A DNA stretch of 10,038 bases from IMG/VR virus record IMGVR_UViG_2541047698_000009. One strand, written 5' to 3'. This DNA is from a virus. Its lineage: Duplodnaviria > Heunggongvirae > Uroviricota > Caudoviricetes. Within the stretch, counting starts at the first letter, position 1; each line of letters opens with the position of its first letter. A program made the position numbers and the translations under genes. Shown here piece by piece: positions 1,407 through 7,568 of the stretch. The notes below the pieces were generated by a model. The model saw only the letters and a program-made list of their open reading frames with translations. It searched no databases and had not been told where the DNA came from.

Positions 1407-2150
1407 ATGACACAGACTGAATCAGCGATTCTGGCGCATGCCCGGCGGTGTGCGCCTGCGGAGTCGTGCGGCTTCGTGATAAGCACGCCGGAGGGGGAGC
1501 GGTATATCCCTTGTGTGAATATTTCCGCGGAGCCGGAGGCGTATTTTCGTATCGCACCGGAAGACTGGCTGCGGGCAGAGATGCAGGGGGAGATTGTGGC
1601 ACTGGTCCACAGTCATCCCGGTGGGCTGCCCTGGCTGAGCGAGGCTGACCGGCGGCTGCAGATAAAAAGCGCACTGCCCTGGTGGCTGGTCTGCCGGGGT
1701 GACATTCACAAATTCCGCTGTGTGCCACATCTGACGGGACGGCGCTTTGAGCACGGGGTGACGGACTGTTACACGCTGTTCCGGGATGCTTATCATCTGG
1801 CGGGGACTGAAATGCCGGATTTTCATCGCGAGGATGACTGGTGGCGCAACGGCCAGAACCTGTACCTGGACAACCTGGCGGAAAACGGCTTTTGCCGGGT
1901 GTCTCCGTCCTCTGCACAGGCAGGCGATGTGCTGCTGTGCTGCTTTGGTTCATCGGTGCCGAATCATGCCGCCGTTTACTGTGGTGACGGCGAGCTGCTG
2001 CACCATATTCCTGAACAACTGAGTAAACGGGAGAGGTATTCCGAAAAATGGCAACGACGAACGCATTCTGTCTGGCGTCACCGCCACTGGCACGCATCCG
2101 CCTTTACGGGGATTTACAACGATTTGGCCGCCGCCTCAGCCTGTATGTGA
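1407..2150 (+). CDS. K: Tail tip assembly protein K (JAB/MPN + NlpC/P60 domains)
   Basis: ATG at 1407 lies 10 nt after the L stop. The 247-aa product has a JAMM-type motif HSHPGGLPWLSEAD (HxHx7Sx2D) and NlpC/P60-like Cys/His (VTDCYTLF, PNHAAVY). The ORF-track start at 1146 is an in-frame upstream extension inside L and is rejected. The exact start is uncertain; I recall lambda K being annotated shorter, from an internal ATG. Confidence 0.85.
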   Translation: MTQTESAILAHARRCAPAESCGFVISTPEGERYIPCVNISAEPEAYFRIAPEDWLRAEMQGEIVALVHSHPGGLPWLSEADRRLQIKSALPWWLVCRGDIHKFRCVPHLTGRRFEHGVTDCYTLFRDAYHLAGTEMPDFHREDDWWRNGQNLYLDNLAENGFCRVSPSSAQAGDVLLCCFGSSVPNHAAVYCGDGELLHHIPEQLSKRERYSEKWQRRTHSVWRHRHWHASAFTGIYNDLAAASACM

Positions 2151-2728
2151 ACACGGCAGCGGAAGCCATTCGCGCCCTGTCGATGCAGATGCCGGGCTTT
2201 CGCCGTCAGATGAACGAAGGCTGGTACCAGATACGTATTGCCGGTGATGACACGGCACCGGAGGCGGTGTACGCCCGTCTTCACGAACAGCTGGGTGAGG
2301 GAACGGTCATCCACATTGTGCCGCGACTGGCCGGGGCCGGAAAGGGTGGACTGCAGATTGTGCTGGGGGCGGCAGCCATCGTGGGCTCTTTCTTCACGGC
2401 CGGTGCCTCGATGGTGTTATGGGGTACAGCCCTGAGTGCCGGCGGTTTTTCTGCCACCACGATGCTGTTTTCACTGGGGGCCAGCATGATACTGGGCGGT
2501 GTGGCCCAGATGCTGGCCCCGAAGGCAAAAACACCGGATTACCGCGCAACGGATAACGGCAGACAGAACACGTACTTTTCCTCACTGGATAACATGATTG
2601 CCCAGGGGAACCCGATGCCGGTGCCTTACGGGGAAATGCTGGTTGGCTCCCGCCGTATATCCCAGGACATCAGCACCCGTGATGAAGGCGGGGGCGGAAA
2701 GGTCGTGGTTATCGGGCGGCAGGGGTAA
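2048..2728 (+). CDS. I: Tail tip assembly protein I
   Basis: 226-aa ORF beginning MATTNAFCLASPPLARIRLYGDLQRFGRR, with a Gly/Ala-rich hydrophobic C-terminal half as in lambda gpI. It overlaps the 3' end of K by 103 nt in another frame, as K/I do in lambda. Confidence 0.88.
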   Translation: MATTNAFCLASPPLARIRLYGDLQRFGRRLSLYVNTAAEAIRALSMQMPGFRRQMNEGWYQIRIAGDDTAPEAVYARLHEQLGEGTVIHIVPRLAGAGKGGLQIVLGAAAIVGSFFTAGASMVLWGTALSAGGFSATTMLFSLGASMILGGVAQMLAPKAKTPDYRATDNGRQNTYFSSLDNMIAQGNPMPVPYGEMLVGSRRISQDISTRDEGGGGKVVVIGRQG

Positions 2729-2774
2729 AAAGAATAAAAAAATCCCGCAGTGATCGCGGACAGGAACTGCGGGA
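2729..2774 (-). terminator. Intrinsic terminator, minus-strand orientation only
   Basis: Perfect 9-bp stem 2743-2751 (TCCCGCAGT) / 2766-2774 (ACTGCGGGA) with a 14-nt loop. On the minus strand it is followed by UUUUUUUAUUCUUU (complement of 2729-2742). On the + strand there is no U-tract after the stem. Confidence 0.6.
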
Positions 2775-2832
2775 GAGTTACGAAGATTAAGTGTAAGGAA
2801 TTATTCTTATATCACGACAAAAAAATTAACGC
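2736..2832 (-). ncRNA. Candidate small non-coding RNA (moron) between I and J; ends approximate
   Basis: Lies between a near-consensus minus-strand promoter (2839-2866) and the minus-strand terminator (2729-2774). No ATG and no ORF longer than 2-3 codons on that strand within the interval. U-rich 5' part and a CU-rich stretch before the terminator stem. Confidence 0.35.
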
Positions 2833-2838
2833 AGAGAA

Positions 2839-2866
2839 ATTATACGCGCCACAGTCAGTTTGTGAA
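2839..2866 (-). promoter_or_regulatory. Putative sigma70 promoter, reads leftward on minus strand
   Basis: Minus-strand reading: -35 TTCACA (complement of 2861-2866, 5/6 to TTGACA), 16-nt spacer, -10 TATAAT (complement of 2839-2844, 6/6). A/T-rich block upstream (2867-2890). Predicted start near 2832. Confidence 0.4.
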
Positions 2867-2930
2867 AATGTGAAGATATTCAGAATTTTTATGCCATTAC
2901 CGGTTTTAACCAACAGGATTATCGGTGGGC

Positions 2931-2974
2931 ATGAAAGAAAACCCCGGTATCTGCTGATACCGGGGTTTCTCTTT
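2931..2974. terminator. Bidirectional intrinsic-terminator-like hairpin
   Basis: Perfect 13-bp stem 2939-2951 (AAACCCCGGTATC) / 2956-2968 (GATACCGGGGTTT) with 4-nt loop TGCT. Followed by TTTCTCTTT on the + strand and by TTTTCTTTC on the minus strand. Confidence 0.5.
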
Positions 2975-3071
2975 AGCATGGCAGAAATGTGTTTCATGCT
3001 TTTCGGGCGAAGGATATCCGACTTCTGTACGGAATGGCAAGTGGCGGTTAATTTATTCAGGGGAAGGCTGT

Positions 3072-6000
3072 ATGGGAAAAGGTGGCGGTAAGGCACACAC
3101 GCCTCGTGAGGCGAAGGATAATCTCAAATCCACGCAGATGATGAGTGTGATTGATGCGATTGGTGAGGGACCGATAGAAGGTCCGGTGAAGGGACAGCAG
3201 AGTATTCTGGTGAACAAAACCCCGCTGACGGACACGGACGGTAATCCCGTGATACACGGTGTGACTGCGGTCTGGCGTGCCGGGGAGCAGGAGCAGACAC
3301 CACCGGAAGGCTTTGAGTCCTCCGGAGCTGAAACCGGACTGGGCGTGGAAGTGACGAAGGCAAAACCGGTGACGCGCACCATTACGTCCGCGAACATTGA
3401 CCGCCTGCGGGTTACCTTCGGGGTGCAGTCACTGGTGCAGACCACGTCAAAGGGCGACCGTAATCCTTCCTCTGTCCGGATTCTGATTCAGTTACAGCGT
3501 AATGGCCGCTGGGTGACGGAAAAGGATGTCACCATTAACGGCAAGACCACCTCGCAGTTCCTGGCCTCGGTGATTCTGGATAATCTGCCTCCCCGGCCCT
3601 TTAACATCCGGATGGTCAGGGAGACGGCGGACAGCACCACGGACCAGCTGCAGAATAAGACGCTGTGGTCGTCATACACCGAAATCATCGATGTGAAACA
3701 GTGCTACCCGAACACGGCCATTGTGGGGCTGCAGGTGGATGCGGAGCAGTTCGGCGGCCAGCAGATGACGGTGAACTACCATATCCGCGGTCGCATCATC
3801 CAGGTGCCGTCAAACTATGACCCGGAAAAACGCACGTACAGTGGTATCTGGGACGGCAGCCTGAAACCGGCATACAGCAACAACCCGGCCTGGTGTCTGT
3901 GGGACATGCTGACTCACCCGCGCTACGGCATGGGAAAACGTCTGGGGGCGGCGGATGTGGACAAGTGGGCGCTGTATGCCATCGGGCAGTACTGCGACCA
4001 GACGGTCCCGGATGGTTTCGGGGGGACCGAGCCGCGGATGACCTTTAATGCGTACCTGGCACAACAGCGTAAGGCGTGGGACGTTCTCAGTGATTTCTGC
4101 TCTGCGATGCGCTGTATGCCGGTATGGAACGGCCAGACGCTGACGTTCGTTCAGGACCGTCCGTCGGATGTGGTGTGGCCGTACACCAACAGCGATGTGG
4201 TGGTGGATGATAACGGCGTGGGTTTCCGCTACAGCTTCAGTGCCCTGAAGGACCGGCACACGGCAGTGGAGGTGAATTACACCGACCCGCAGAACGGCTG
4301 GCAGACCTCCACGGAACTGGTGGAAGACCCGGAAGCCATACTGCGCTACGGACGCAACCTGCTGAAGATGGACGCGTTCGGCTGTACCAGCCGCGGTCAG
4401 GCCCACCGTGCCGGACTGTGGGTGATAAAGACCGAACTGCTGGAAACGCAGACGGTGGATTTCACGCTCGGGTCTCAGGGGCTGCGGCACACACCCGGTG
4501 ACATCATTGAAATCTGTGATAACGACTATGCCGGGACCCTGACCGGCGGACGTGTCCTGTCCATTGATGCTGCCACCCGCACCCTGACGCTGGACCGTGA
4601 AGTGACACTTCCGGAGACCGGTGCCGCCACGGTGAACCTGATTAACGGCAGTGGTAAGCCGGTGAGTGTGGACATCACCGAACACCCCGCGCCGGACCGG
4701 ATACAGGTCAGTACCCTGCCTGATGGTGTGGAGACATACGGGGTGTGGGGACTCTCCCTGCCGTCACTGCGCCGTCGCCTGTTCCGCTGTGTCTCCGTCC
4801 GGGAAAACACGGACGGCACCTTTGCCATCACGGCGGTGCAGCACGTACCGGAAAAAGAAGCCATTGTGGATAACGGGGCCAGCTTTGAGCCGCAGTCAGG
4901 CAGCCTGAACAGCGTTATCCCACCGGCAGTGCAGCACCTGACGGTGGAGGTGAGTGCAGCTGACGGTCAGTATCTGGCACAGGCGAAATGGGACACGCCG
5001 CGGGTGGTGAAGGGTGTGCGCTTCAGTCTGCGTCTGACCAGCGGAAGCGGAGAAGACAGCCGTCTGGTGAGCACCGCCATCACCGCAGACACGGAGCACC
5101 GTTTCAGTGGTCTGCCGCTGGGGGAATACACCCTGACGGTGCGGGCCATTAACAGCTACGGCCAGCAGGGCGAACCTGCGACCACCACCTTCCGGATTAA
5201 CGCGCCTGCAAAACCCGCCACCATTGAGCTGACGCCGGGGTATTTTCAGATAACGGCGGTACCGGTGCTGGCGGTGTATGACCCGACGGTGCAGTTTGAG
5301 TTCTGGTTTTCGGAAAAACGCATCACGAACACGGCACAGGTGGAAAAATCTGCCCGTTATCTGGGGACCGGCAGTCAGTGGACTGTCCAGGGCGATCGGA
5401 TTAAGCCGGGGATGGATTTCTGGTTTTATGTGCGCAGTGTCAACCTGGTGGGCAAGTCTGCATTTGTGGAAGCCAGCGGGCAGGCCAGCAATGATGCAAA
5501 AGGGTATCTGGAATTTTTCCGTGGTCTGATAGATGAGACGCTTCTGGGCCAGGCACTGAAAGAGCGCATTGATGCTTCAGCGCTGCGTACGGAGGTCACG
5601 CAACTGGAAGAAGACATCCGTCAGCGGATGGACACGGATATCGCAGAAGTGACCCGGAAAATCGGGGAGGCGGAAAACAGCCTCACGCAGCTGGTTGCGA
5701 AAAAGAATGAGGACCAGACACTGGCCATCGCGCAGGTGAGCCAGAAAGTGGACCGGGTGAGCAGTGAAATCTCACAGACTGTCAGCCAGGGGCAGTCAGA
5801 AAATGCCCGACAGATAGCACAGGTCCGCCAGTACGTGGATAAAAAAGGGAGTGAAATTACCTCGACCACGGATAAAAAACTGGGTGACCAGGCCGTGACC
5901 ATACAGCAAATCCAGCGGGTTCAGTCAGACACGCGCAATGAGCTGAATGCCATGTATATGCTGAAGGTGCAGAAAACAAAAAACGGTATTCCCTATGTGG

Positions 6001-6764
6001 CCGGGATTGGTGCGGGGATTGAGGATGTTGATGGTCAGACGCTGAGCAGTATTCTGCTGCAGGCGGACCGTATCGCGATGATTACCCCGGAGAATGGCAA
6101 CACCACGCCGCTGTTTGTGGCGCAGGGGAATCAGCTGTTCATGAACGACGTGTTCCTGAAGCGACTGTTTGCGGTGAGCATCACGTCATCCGGCAATCCT
6201 CCTACGTTTTCCCTGACGCCGGATGGCAGGCTGGCAGCCCGCAATGCGGATATCAGTGGAGCCATCACGGCGAATACCGGCACGCTCAATAATGTCACCA
6301 TTAACGAGAACTGTGTCATCAGAGGGAAACTGTCTGCAAACCAGATTGAAGGCGATCTCGTTAAAACAGTGGGTAAGGCTTTCCCCCGTGACTCCCGTGC
6401 ACCGGAGAGGTGGCCATCAGGGACCATTACCGTCAGGGTTTATGACGATCAGCCGTTTGACCGGCAAATTGTTATTCCGGCGGTGGCATTCAGCGGTGCC
6501 AGACATGAGCGGGAGAATAACGATATTTATTCGTCATGCCGCCTGATAGTACGGAAAAACGGTGCTGAAATTTATAACCGTACCGCGCTGGATAATACGC
6601 TGGTTTACAGTGGTGTTATTGATATGCCTGCTGGTCGCGGCCACATGACGCTGGAGTTTTCTGTATCAGCATGGTGGGTAAATGGCTGGTATCCCACAGC
6701 AAGTATCAGCGATTTGCTGGTTGTTGTGATGAAGAAAGCCACTGCAGGCATCACGATTAGCTGA
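3072..6764 (+). CDS. J: Host specificity protein J (central tail fibre / tail tip)
   Basis: 1230-aa ORF; N-terminus [39 protein letters not shown] and long internal stretches ([95 protein letters not shown]) match lambda gpJ as I recall it. RBS-like GGGGAAGG upstream of the ATG. Confidence 0.95.
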
Positions 6765-6783
6765 ATTTTATAACCCCAATACG

Positions 6784-6807
6784 GGCGCCAGAAATGGCGC
6801 CTTTTTT
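6784..6807 (+). terminator. Intrinsic terminator after J
   Basis: GC stem GGCGCC (6784-6789) / GGCGCC (6796-6801), 6-nt loop AGAAAT, followed by TTTTTT (6802-6807). Confidence 0.6.
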
Positions 6808-6831: not shown

Positions 6832-7431
6832 ATGCGTAAATTATGTGCTGTTATTCTGTCCGCAGTAGTCTGGCTGGTTGCCGCTGGTACACCAGCGAGC
6901 GCAGCAGAGCATCAGTCCACACTAAGCGCCGGGTATCTTCAGACCCACACTGATATGCCAGGCAGCGATAATCTGAACGGGATTAACGTGAAATACCGTT
7001 ATGAGTTTACGGACGCGCTGGGGCTGATTACGTCCTTCAGTTATGCCAATGCTGAGGATGAGCAAAAAACGCACTACAGCGATACCCGCTGGCATGAAGA
7101 TTCCGTGCGTAACCGCTGGTTCAGCGTGATGGCGGGGCCATCTGTACGCGTGAATGAATGGTTCAGTGCTTATGCGATGGCAGGTGTGGCTTACAGCCGT
7201 GTGTCGACGTTCTCCGGGGATTATCTCCGCGTAACTGACAACAAGGGGAAAACGCACGATGTGCTGACCGGAAGTGATGACGATCGCCACAGCAACACGT
7301 CTCTGGCGTGGGGAGCTGGCGTGCAGTTTAACCCGACCGAATCCGTGACCATTGATATTGCTTATGAAGGTTCCGGTAGTGGCGACTGGCGAACGGATGC
7401 ATTTATTGTTGGTATCGGATACCGTTTCTGA
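6832..7431 (+). CDS. lom: Lom-like outer membrane beta-barrel protein (Ail/Lom/PagC family)
   Basis: 199-aa ORF with a signal peptide (MRKLCAVILSAVVWLVAAGTPASA then AEHQ). Conserved blocks GINVKYRYE, SVMAGP, SAYAMAGVA, DIAYEGSGSGDWRTD and terminal GIGYRF match lambda Lom as I recall it. RBS GAGAGG 6 nt upstream; sits directly after J as in lambda. Confidence 0.93.
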   Translation: MRKLCAVILSAVVWLVAAGTPASAAEHQSTLSAGYLQTHTDMPGSDNLNGINVKYRYEFTDALGLITSFSYANAEDEQKTHYSDTRWHEDSVRNRWFSVMAGPSVRVNEWFSAYAMAGVAYSRVSTFSGDYLRVTDNKGKTHDVLTGSDDDRHSNTSLAWGAGVQFNPTESVTIDIAYEGSGSGDWRTDAFIVGIGYRF

Positions 7432-7536
7432 CAACAGACGCCGATTTATCTTCTGTAAATATTGTTATGATACGCAGGTTCATCCGCCTTATGGGGTGAA
7501 CTGCGTTTGAGGAAACGTAAAGTTACACTGTCCTGA

Positions 7537-7568
7537 AGCCCGTGGCGTCACTGCTGCGGGCTTTTTTT
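7537..7568 (+). terminator. Intrinsic terminator after lom
   Basis: Stem AGCCCG (7537-7542) / CGGGCT (7556-7561) with a 13-nt loop, followed by TTTTTTT (7562-7568). Confidence 0.55.

Follow-up and report, generated by a model that had tools for sequence, protein, structure and literature searches.

A predicted small RNA gene between prophage tail genes I and J is, by sequence, a strongly diverged allele of pasB

A promoter-to-terminator module lies opposite the late operon in the I-J interval

Between two tail genes of its late operon, the window (the whole 10,038-nucleotide stretch of phage DNA analysed here) carries a compact set of elements on the minus strand, which an initial annotation made from the sequence had singled out as a candidate small RNA (sRNA) gene. 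That annotation had taken the neighbours to be tail genes I and J, and both assignments were confirmed by Pfam (Lambda_tail_I and the FNIII-A domain of GpJ) and by RefSeq records for CFT073. The features of the interval are listed below.

2147..2728, plus strand: tail assembly gene I (Pfam Lambda_tail_I at 2147-2725; RefSeq annotation of identical CFT073 DNA)
2736..2742, minus strand: U7 tail, the transcript 3′ end as in published PasB and an expected Hfq proximal-face site
2743..2774, minus strand: terminator hairpin read from the sequence, a 9-bp GC-rich stem UCCCGCAGU (2774-2766) / ACUGCGGGA (2751-2743) with a 14-nt loop
2774..2800, minus strand: UUCCUUACACUUAAUCUUCGUAACUCU, the predicted pairing (seed) zone, left single-stranded by the consensus fold and homologous to PasB nt 32-65
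2800..2808, minus strand: AAGAAUAAU, three consecutive A-R-N triplets at RNA nt 25-33, a possible Hfq distal-face site; an A-rich A-R-N run lies at the aligned position in diverged alleles
2736..2832, minus strand: predicted primary transcript of 97 nt, its 5′ end set by promoter geometry and its 3′ end by the last U of U7
2844-2839, minus strand: -10 hexamer TATAAT, 16 nt from the -35 hexamer, identical in E2348/69 pasB
2866-2861, minus strand: -35 hexamer TTCACA, identical in nearly all alleles
2867..2892, minus strand: A/T-rich block preceding the -35 hexamer (…CATAAAAATTCTGAATATC), shared by alleles with otherwise different flanks
2930..2980, no strand assigned: very stable hairpin by fold energy, between the sRNA promoter and J, with a 13-bp core (2939-2951/2956-2968)
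3072..6764, plus strand: tail tip gene J (Pfam FNIII-A_GpJ at the gene start; RefSeq gpJ on identical CFT073 DNA)

The -35 hexamer, the 16-nt spacer and the perfect TATAAT were recovered at the positions first proposed, and in a consensus scan TTCACA-16-TATAAT ranked first among the promoters of the whole window, with 11 of 12 matches. The A/T-rich block upstream is, judged by its sequence, a possible UP element. The 9-bp GC-rich stem and its U-tract were also found as described, with the promoter ~95 nt upstream of the hairpin and the -10 box about 65 nt from the terminator stem. The U-tract had been said to end right at the I stop codon; it actually ends 7 nt from it (stop 2726-2728), and beyond U7 (2742-2736) the minus strand continues as AUUCUUUUU.

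In a chance test of 400 first-order Markov simulations, matched to the window in size and composition and scanned on both strands, promoters with at least 11 of 12 matches arose at a mean of 0.037 per simulation. Such a promoter followed by a strict terminator within 40-250 nt occurred in 0 of the 400 simulations, against exactly one occurrence in the real window. The promoter-plus-terminator module at 2866-2736 (minus strand) is real, far beyond chance.

As had been noted initially, the interval holds no ATG and its longest reading frames run to 2-3 codons; two mechanical open reading frames that overlap it, 2750-3088 (plus strand) and 2815-3096 (minus strand), match no Pfam family. Moreover, the I-J gap varies between alleles (343, 240 and 234 nt) by differences that are not multiples of 3, and a reading frame is not kept. 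The possibility that the segment is a remnant of a protein-coding gene, which the initial annotation had raised against its own proposal, was rejected on these two grounds.

The single-sequence minimum free energy fold of the window RNA contains weak 5′ pairing only, and in a consensus fold of nine alleles (RNAalifold) everything except the terminator is unpaired. RNAalifold gave no covariation support for the stem; its 7-bp core is invariant in every allele, and because the stem never varies no covariation is possible, so that the evidence for the structure is conservation and folding energy. The 9-bp stem and U7 together form a Rho-independent terminator with a U-tail of at least 6 nt, as in sRNAs of the Hfq class. 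The A-R-N run AAGAAUAAU is a possible distal-face site for Hfq, although it is weak evidence on its own.

The locus is a homologue of pasB of EPEC E2348/69

Hfq RIL-seq has uncovered five accessory-genome sRNAs in EPEC E2348/69, among them PasB (Pearl Mizrahi et al., 2021, PMC8550237). PasB is an 83-nt RNA encoded at NC_011601.1 1466343-1466261, minus strand, in prophage PP6 (Table S6 of Pearl Mizrahi et al., 2021, PMC8550237). In the E2348/69 genome the tail assembly gene ends at 1466255 and gpJ starts at 1466496, and the window candidate likewise occupies the I-J slot on the strand opposite to the late operon. The promoter regions of the two loci are identical at 56 of 61 positions, with the same hexamers and spacer length; the first six transcribed bases are the same, the last 25 nt are identical, and the published PasB Northern probe AATCCCGCAGTGATCGCGGAGCT matches window 2741-2760 at 20 of its 23 positions.

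A covariance model was built from nine E2348-like (published-type) PasB alleles, with window-type sequences left out. Its positions 1-98 align end to end on window 2832-2736 (minus strand) with a score of 58.2 bits (E ~1e-12), the next-best match in the window having an E-value of 0.86. One end of the alignment falls on the start expected from the -10 box, the other on the final U of the tail. By these sequence comparisons the window locus is a homologue of pasB of EPEC E2348/69, and an unannotated, strongly diverged allele of it. The homology, in position, strand, promoter and terminator, supports the initial proposal of an ORF-less, Hfq-type sRNA gene on the minus strand.

Rfam 15 at gathering thresholds had no match anywhere in the window (AgvB, AsxR, Esr41, STnc100, IsrG, DicF and IpeX included), and at permissive E-values the stretch 2650-3100 drew only sub-threshold, terminator-driven matches. 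Of the 1669 complete E. coli genomes with the 401-bp I-J stretch, none has a RefSeq feature at the locus. No paper was retrieved by sequence strings of the window allele or the shared terminator, and a search of the UPEC Hfq/sRNA literature found nothing describing the window locus. The initial annotation could not tell a known sRNA from a new one; the kind of element and the family (PasB) are already known, while the particular allele appears to be undescribed and unannotated.

Expression, Hfq dependence and RNA partners are established elsewhere, for the E2348/69 allele only. PasB is detected on Northern blots and its stability depends on Hfq, with a change in Δhfq of log2 -6.8 under activating and -2.4 under non-activating conditions; it is more abundant under the latter and, with its 37 partners, is 15th in the number of RIL-seq interactions (PMC8550237). 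Within the RIL-seq rows considered here, PasB is always RNA2 of the chimera, as expected for an sRNA, and its partners in those rows include, by number of chimeras, E2348C_2648 (71), the napF leader (70), map (67), yhhX (57), hflX (55) and fabR (50), and further bfpB, caiF, the tolC leader and rplX (PMC8550237). No common target motif is reported for PasB, which is absent from Table S7, and the EHEC homologues given in Table S6 are for PasA and PasD, with none for PasB (PMC8550237). A preprint predicts the PasB seed ‘just upstream of the terminator’ and describes PasB variants as differing by few nucleotides only (Zhu, Shabalina & Storz, 2026, doi 10.64898/2026.05.13.724894).

The published 5′ end of PasB lies 15 nt downstream of the promoter-predicted start. 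Because that end, taken from RNA-seq coverage, corresponds to ~2817 in the window, the mature window RNA may be ~82 nt long.

The window allele is strongly diverged and about as common as the published type

Over its whole length the window RNA is 74% identical to E2348/69 PasB (77/104 aligned columns). The body taken alone reaches 67%, and the pairing zone that immediately precedes the terminator ~65% (CCUUACACUUAAUCUUCGUAACUCU in the window allele, CCUUCACAUUGAUCUUCAUUUGUCUGUC in PasB); the terminator loop is 5 nt longer than that of PasB. The published survey was defined by blastn with the 83-nt E2348/69 query, a word size of 28 and a query coverage above 75%. Run against the window, blastn with these criteria (word size 28) returned no match, and at a word size of 11 it found the 25-nt terminator match only, for 30% coverage.

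Genomes were counted with the 72-nt body, without the shared terminator, across 5426 complete E. coli genomes. The window-type body was present in 800 of them (~15%), at 985 places and in up to 5 copies, and 614 of the 800 carrier genomes had it at 99% identity or above; the E2348-like (published-type) body was present in 887. At least one genome, Ecol_AZ146, has both. The window allele occurs mainly in strains other than PasB carriers, CFT073, S88, IAI39 and ATCC 25922 included. Recent spread of the phages, and not selection, may account for its near-identity in hundreds of genomes. Among 120 IMG/VR loci anchored on the shared terminator, ~52 were window-type, ~52 E2348-like, 12 of a shorter type and 3 chimeric or degenerate. 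Deposited phages also carry the window-type allele, at 97.6% identity in PhiR5_1 and at 94.9% in Stx1a- and Stx2c-converting phages.

The allele was found unchanged in Escherichia albertii NBRC 107761, on a 1.4-kb contig (L229) of a draft genome. The preprint reports PasA as the only Pas sRNA of E. albertii, from a survey of complete genomes only (doi 10.64898/2026.05.13.724894). From the failure of the published search criteria to retrieve the window allele, and from its presence in this species, we infer that it lay outside the published PasB set.

A gapped terminator pattern run on GTDB representatives matched mostly chance terminators in unrelated phyla, the real matches being E. albertii and one probable contaminant contig. 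The latter, L240 (NZ_JBHTEB010000006.1, a 3.4-kb contig of a ‘Streptomyces flavalbus’ assembly), holds at ~2110-2275 a complete chimeric allele that joins a window-like seed, CTCCTTACACTTAATCTTCG, to an E2348-like 3′ part, behind a promoter with a 15-nt spacer. The contig almost certainly entered that assembly as contaminating DNA of an enterobacterial phage.

Alleles of the family share fixed ends and exchange their middle parts

We collected an independent sample of 80 loci, anchored on the I protein and not on the RNA. The promoter and terminator patterns were both present in 69 of the 80, and 9 of the remaining 11 were inspected and turned out to be recognisable diverged or truncated copies; among these the promoter was replaced by unrelated DNA in 4 loci and the hexamers were degraded in several. 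Degraded or replaced promoters thus occur in a minority of related loci (L046/L188, L198/199/202 and L203-207), which indicates that the gene can decay.

Across 39 distinct sequences, the A/T-rich block, the -35 and -10 hexamers, the 5′ GCGUUA, the U-run, AAUCUU, the 7-bp stem CCCGCAG/CUGCGGG and the U-tail are fixed. The variable parts are the A-rich stretch, the segment from UCCUU to AAUCUU, the segment from AAUCUUC to the stem, and the loop, which differs in both length and sequence around the invariant 7-bp core. Within the pairing zone, AAUCUU alone is invariant among the alleles collected and UCC is present in most, and the remainder is the most variable part of the family. An A-R-N triplet run lies at the same aligned place in all alleles (AAGAAUAAU in the window, AGUAACAAAAACAAC in PasB).

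Upstream flanks of the types …GGTAATGGCAT…, …CATGACGGAAT…, …CATGACTGAAT… and …CATCACTGAAT… occur with both window-type and E2348-type bodies (alignment of L003-L214), and alleles that are themselves internally chimeric include L066 and L074, in addition to L240. This mixing of flanks and bodies, together with the chimeric alleles, indicates that recombination shuffles the parts, leaving a mosaic at the scale of tens of bases.

The IMG/VR loci L203-L207, downstream of gene I, keep a window-type body and terminator with loop changes (CCGUGAGC), but unrelated DNA stands in place of the promoter and all that precedes it, and gene I has a different end (…GCATAA). They seem to be copies that were truncated or rearranged.

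The predicted pairing zone of PasB is changed in the window allele

Twelve RIL-seq target sites were taken from the E2348/69 genome and scored in 16-nt sliding windows against shuffled-target controls; unrestricted RNAduplex on whole target regions had given over-extended, uninformative duplexes, and the 16-nt windows were used instead. The RIL-seq read clusters lie mostly on start codons (yijD, caiF, tolC, gshA, ydbJ, napF, yrdD and RS14200). The means over the 12 sites were as follows.

PasB (E2348/69): mean ΔG -16.9 kcal/mol, mean z -1.78
PasB-2: mean ΔG -14.6 kcal/mol, mean z -0.62
Short T3 type: mean ΔG -14.0 kcal/mol, mean z -0.19
Window allele: mean ΔG -11.3 kcal/mol, mean z +0.09

PasB is predicted to pair mainly through nt 32-65 (ACAACUCCUUCACAUUGAUCUUCAUUUGUCUGUC). 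Its predicted duplex with the napF leader is perfect over 16 bp (-23.6 kcal/mol, z -6.4), and ~10 nt of continuous complementarity is found at yijD and caiF, and at tolC too, there in the unrestricted RNAduplex output. The single C27A change of PasB-2 takes the napF duplex from -23.6 to -17.2 kcal/mol. For the window allele, predicted pairing with the 12 PasB sites was no better than with shuffled targets, and since pairing is at chance level the function of PasB is not directly transferable to it; as far as predictions go, it does not have the same seed and targets as PasB. The modelling thus indicates that the PasB pairing zone is real, that its targets are translation start regions, and that the zone is changed in the window allele. 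The early suggestion that a CU-rich stretch of the RNA could pair with Shine-Dalgarno regions fits these results, in that the homologous zone of PasB is predicted to pair with sites that lie mostly at start codons.

A trans target within the window’s own late mRNA was also considered and rejected, the best site (-22.5 kcal/mol) being equal to the shuffled-seed mean (-22.1 kcal/mol).

In the RIL-seq data, the reads assigned to fabR map to the start of yijD (4492374) and those assigned to E2348C_2648 to the start of the next hypothetical gene (2725687) (L123, L127). The genes regulated at these two sites may be mis-assigned in the published table.

The window element is probably a trans-acting sRNA on a PasB chassis

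We consider it probable that the window element is an Hfq-dependent, trans-acting sRNA built on the PasB chassis, with a regulon different from that of PasB or only partly overlapping it. In a lysogen, host RNA polymerase with sigma-70 would start at ~2832 on the minus strand and stop at the hairpin and U7 at 2736, giving a non-coding RNA of ~97 nt that is possibly trimmed to ~82 nt. By homology with PasB, Hfq would bind and stabilise this RNA through the U-tail, and possibly through the A-R-N run as well, and the CU-rich, unstructured zone next to the terminator on its 5′ side would base-pair in trans, mainly with ribosome-binding sites and start codons. The promoter, 5′ end, U-run, AAUCUU core and terminator are shared with PasB; the pairing zone has been rewritten, and for this reason the mRNAs under the control of the window allele most likely form a different set, or one that overlaps only in part. 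The sequence features of the window allele, its homology, its distribution and its divergence are established here; its expression, Hfq binding, trans-regulation and altered target set are proposals drawn from the comparison with PasB.

That the window allele instead has the same function as PasB, its differences being neutral drift and the same mRNAs being reached through the short cores UCCUU and AAUCUUC, seems unlikely. The two alleles do have the scaffold, promoter, terminator and both cores in common, and many PasB sites hold GAAG/GAAGG-type motifs complementary to those cores; against this, the 12-site means for the window allele (z +0.09, -11.3 kcal/mol) contrast with those of PasB (z -1.78, -16.9 kcal/mol), its substitutions break the long duplexes with napF, yijD, caiF and tolC, and even the C27A change of PasB-2 weakens the napF duplex, from -23.6 to -17.2 kcal/mol. 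A main role in cis, in which the RNA would act as an antisense to the I-J late tail mRNA and modulate its processing, its stability or the expression of J during lytic growth, we judge very unlikely. In its favour, the gene is completely enclosed by the late operon in antisense orientation, its RNA would match the I-J intercistronic mRNA with perfect complementarity, and a plus-strand terminator-like hairpin is always found with it upstream of J. Against it, the RNA 2832-2736 overlaps neither the I coding sequence nor the ribosome-binding site of J (which starts at 3072). PasB is also plentiful in lysogens, where it has dozens of trans partners on Hfq, and the RIL-seq rows considered here contain no late-operon partner of PasB.

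A sponge or anti-sRNA that sequesters a core sRNA or Hfq, in the manner of AgvB and AsxR of EHEC prophages, would share with the window element its prophage origin, conserved 3′ part, variable 5′ and middle parts and A-R-N run. We regard this as highly improbable, given that PasB partners are almost all mRNAs, with one partner from an sRNA region (the intergenic region adjacent to pasA, 19 chimeras) in the rows considered, that a gcvB-pasB pair is absent from the gcvB block of the RIL-seq table, and that Rfam gave no match to AgvB or AsxR. We would give equally little credence to a non-functional hitchhiker, a decaying pasB copy carried along by a successful tail module: promoters are lost or degraded in some related loci, there is no covariation, and the identity level of the allele equals that of the surrounding phage DNA, but here the promoter matches at 11 of 12 positions and the terminator is intact, and it is mostly the body that has diverged, with the promoter, 5′ end, AAUCUU core, stem and U-tail remaining fixed. 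The allele is moreover joined to at least 3 different upstream flanks and contributes to chimeric alleles, which argues that it has persisted through recombination.

Beyond the preferred reading of a trans-acting sRNA with its own regulon, we tentatively entertain a broader possibility, namely that the I-J slot holds an allelic series in which a fixed chassis (promoter, 5′ end, U-run, AAUCUU core, terminator and U-tail) carries a recombining, rewritten seed, each allele giving its lysogen a different Hfq-dependent regulon. The forms in such a series would be the window type, PasB, PasB-2, the short T3 type, the L212 and L198 types and the chimeras. If this is so, the window allele would be a regulator of host genes in CFT073, S88, IAI39 and similar (extraintestinal pathogenic) strains, one overlooked by annotation and by the published PasB survey alike.

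PasB is among the most connected accessory-genome sRNAs of EPEC, yet it is absent from Rfam and from RefSeq annotation. The pasB locus exists in a second, equally common form (800 vs 887 of 5426 complete genomes), which escaped the published distribution study and whose presumed seed is different; surveys of PasB presence and absence across pathotypes are therefore incomplete. CFT073 and ATCC 25922 carry this putative Hfq-type regulator. The family offers a natural experiment in how prophage sRNAs may change targets while keeping their expression and Hfq-binding modules. For specialists this is a useful refinement and no surprise.

Relation to other prophage elements

The closest known relatives, PasB and PasB-2, share with the window allele the I-J slot, the strand, the -35 and -10 hexamers with their spacer, the first 6 nt, the U-run, the AAUCUU core, the stem and U7. 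They differ from it in the pairing zone, which is rewritten in the window allele, and the RIL-seq sites of PasB are not among its predicted partners. PasA, PasA-2 and PasC are likewise prophage sRNA alleles with a conserved 3′ end and divergence elsewhere (doi 10.64898/2026.05.13.724894), but they are unrelated in sequence and lie near the Q and lysis genes of their prophages. In PasA, moreover, the seed is reported to be conserved and the 5′ part to diverge, whereas the divergence of the window allele includes the presumed seed.

AgvB and AsxR, prophage sRNAs bound by Hfq, end in a Rho-independent terminator and contain A-R-N motifs and a variable domain that determines specificity (Tree et al., 2014, PMC4104026), a description that the window allele would match if, as predicted, it binds Hfq. 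They have no sequence or Rfam relationship to it, and they mimic the targets of core sRNAs (PMC4104026), whereas the partners of PasB are mostly mRNAs.

As an autonomous transcription unit between two genes of a late operon, predicted to be expressed from the prophage, the window element resembles a phage moron. Morons are reported to consist of a promoter of their own, a gene and a terminator set between late genes, lambda lom and bor being examples (concept of Juhala, Hendrix et al., 2000). Unlike them, the window element has as its cargo a non-coding RNA, oriented opposite to the operon.

Other elements around the locus

The hairpin at 2930..2980 belongs to the intergenic insert. It folds at -32.2 kcal/mol on the plus and -28.7 kcal/mol on the minus strand (z -5.4 and -5.7) and is flanked on either side by T-rich runs; in its place, E2348/69 and other short-flank loci have a different hairpin with a plus-strand U-tail. 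A second, small plus-strand hairpin follows it (AGCATG 2975-2980 / CATGCT 2995-3000), and a promoter-like site with 9 of 12 matches at 3040-3011 (minus strand) could in principle drive a minus-strand RNA of ~70 nt ending at the 2930-2980 hairpin. The region 2930-3040 may therefore be a terminator against read-through into J unless Q-antiterminated, an insulator of the sRNA promoter, or another small transcript.

In CFT073 (NC_004431.1 1364141-1364483), the RefSeq locus tags skip from C_RS06865 (gene I) to C_RS06875 (gpJ), a jump that suggests that a feature was formerly annotated in the intergenic region and later withdrawn. Further downstream in the window, strong terminator-like hairpins on the plus strand lie at 6783-6802, right after the end of J (6764), and at 7535-7564, after an Ail/Lom-family gene (6832-7431); hairpins placed around that gene in this way form the classic moron-like lom layout.
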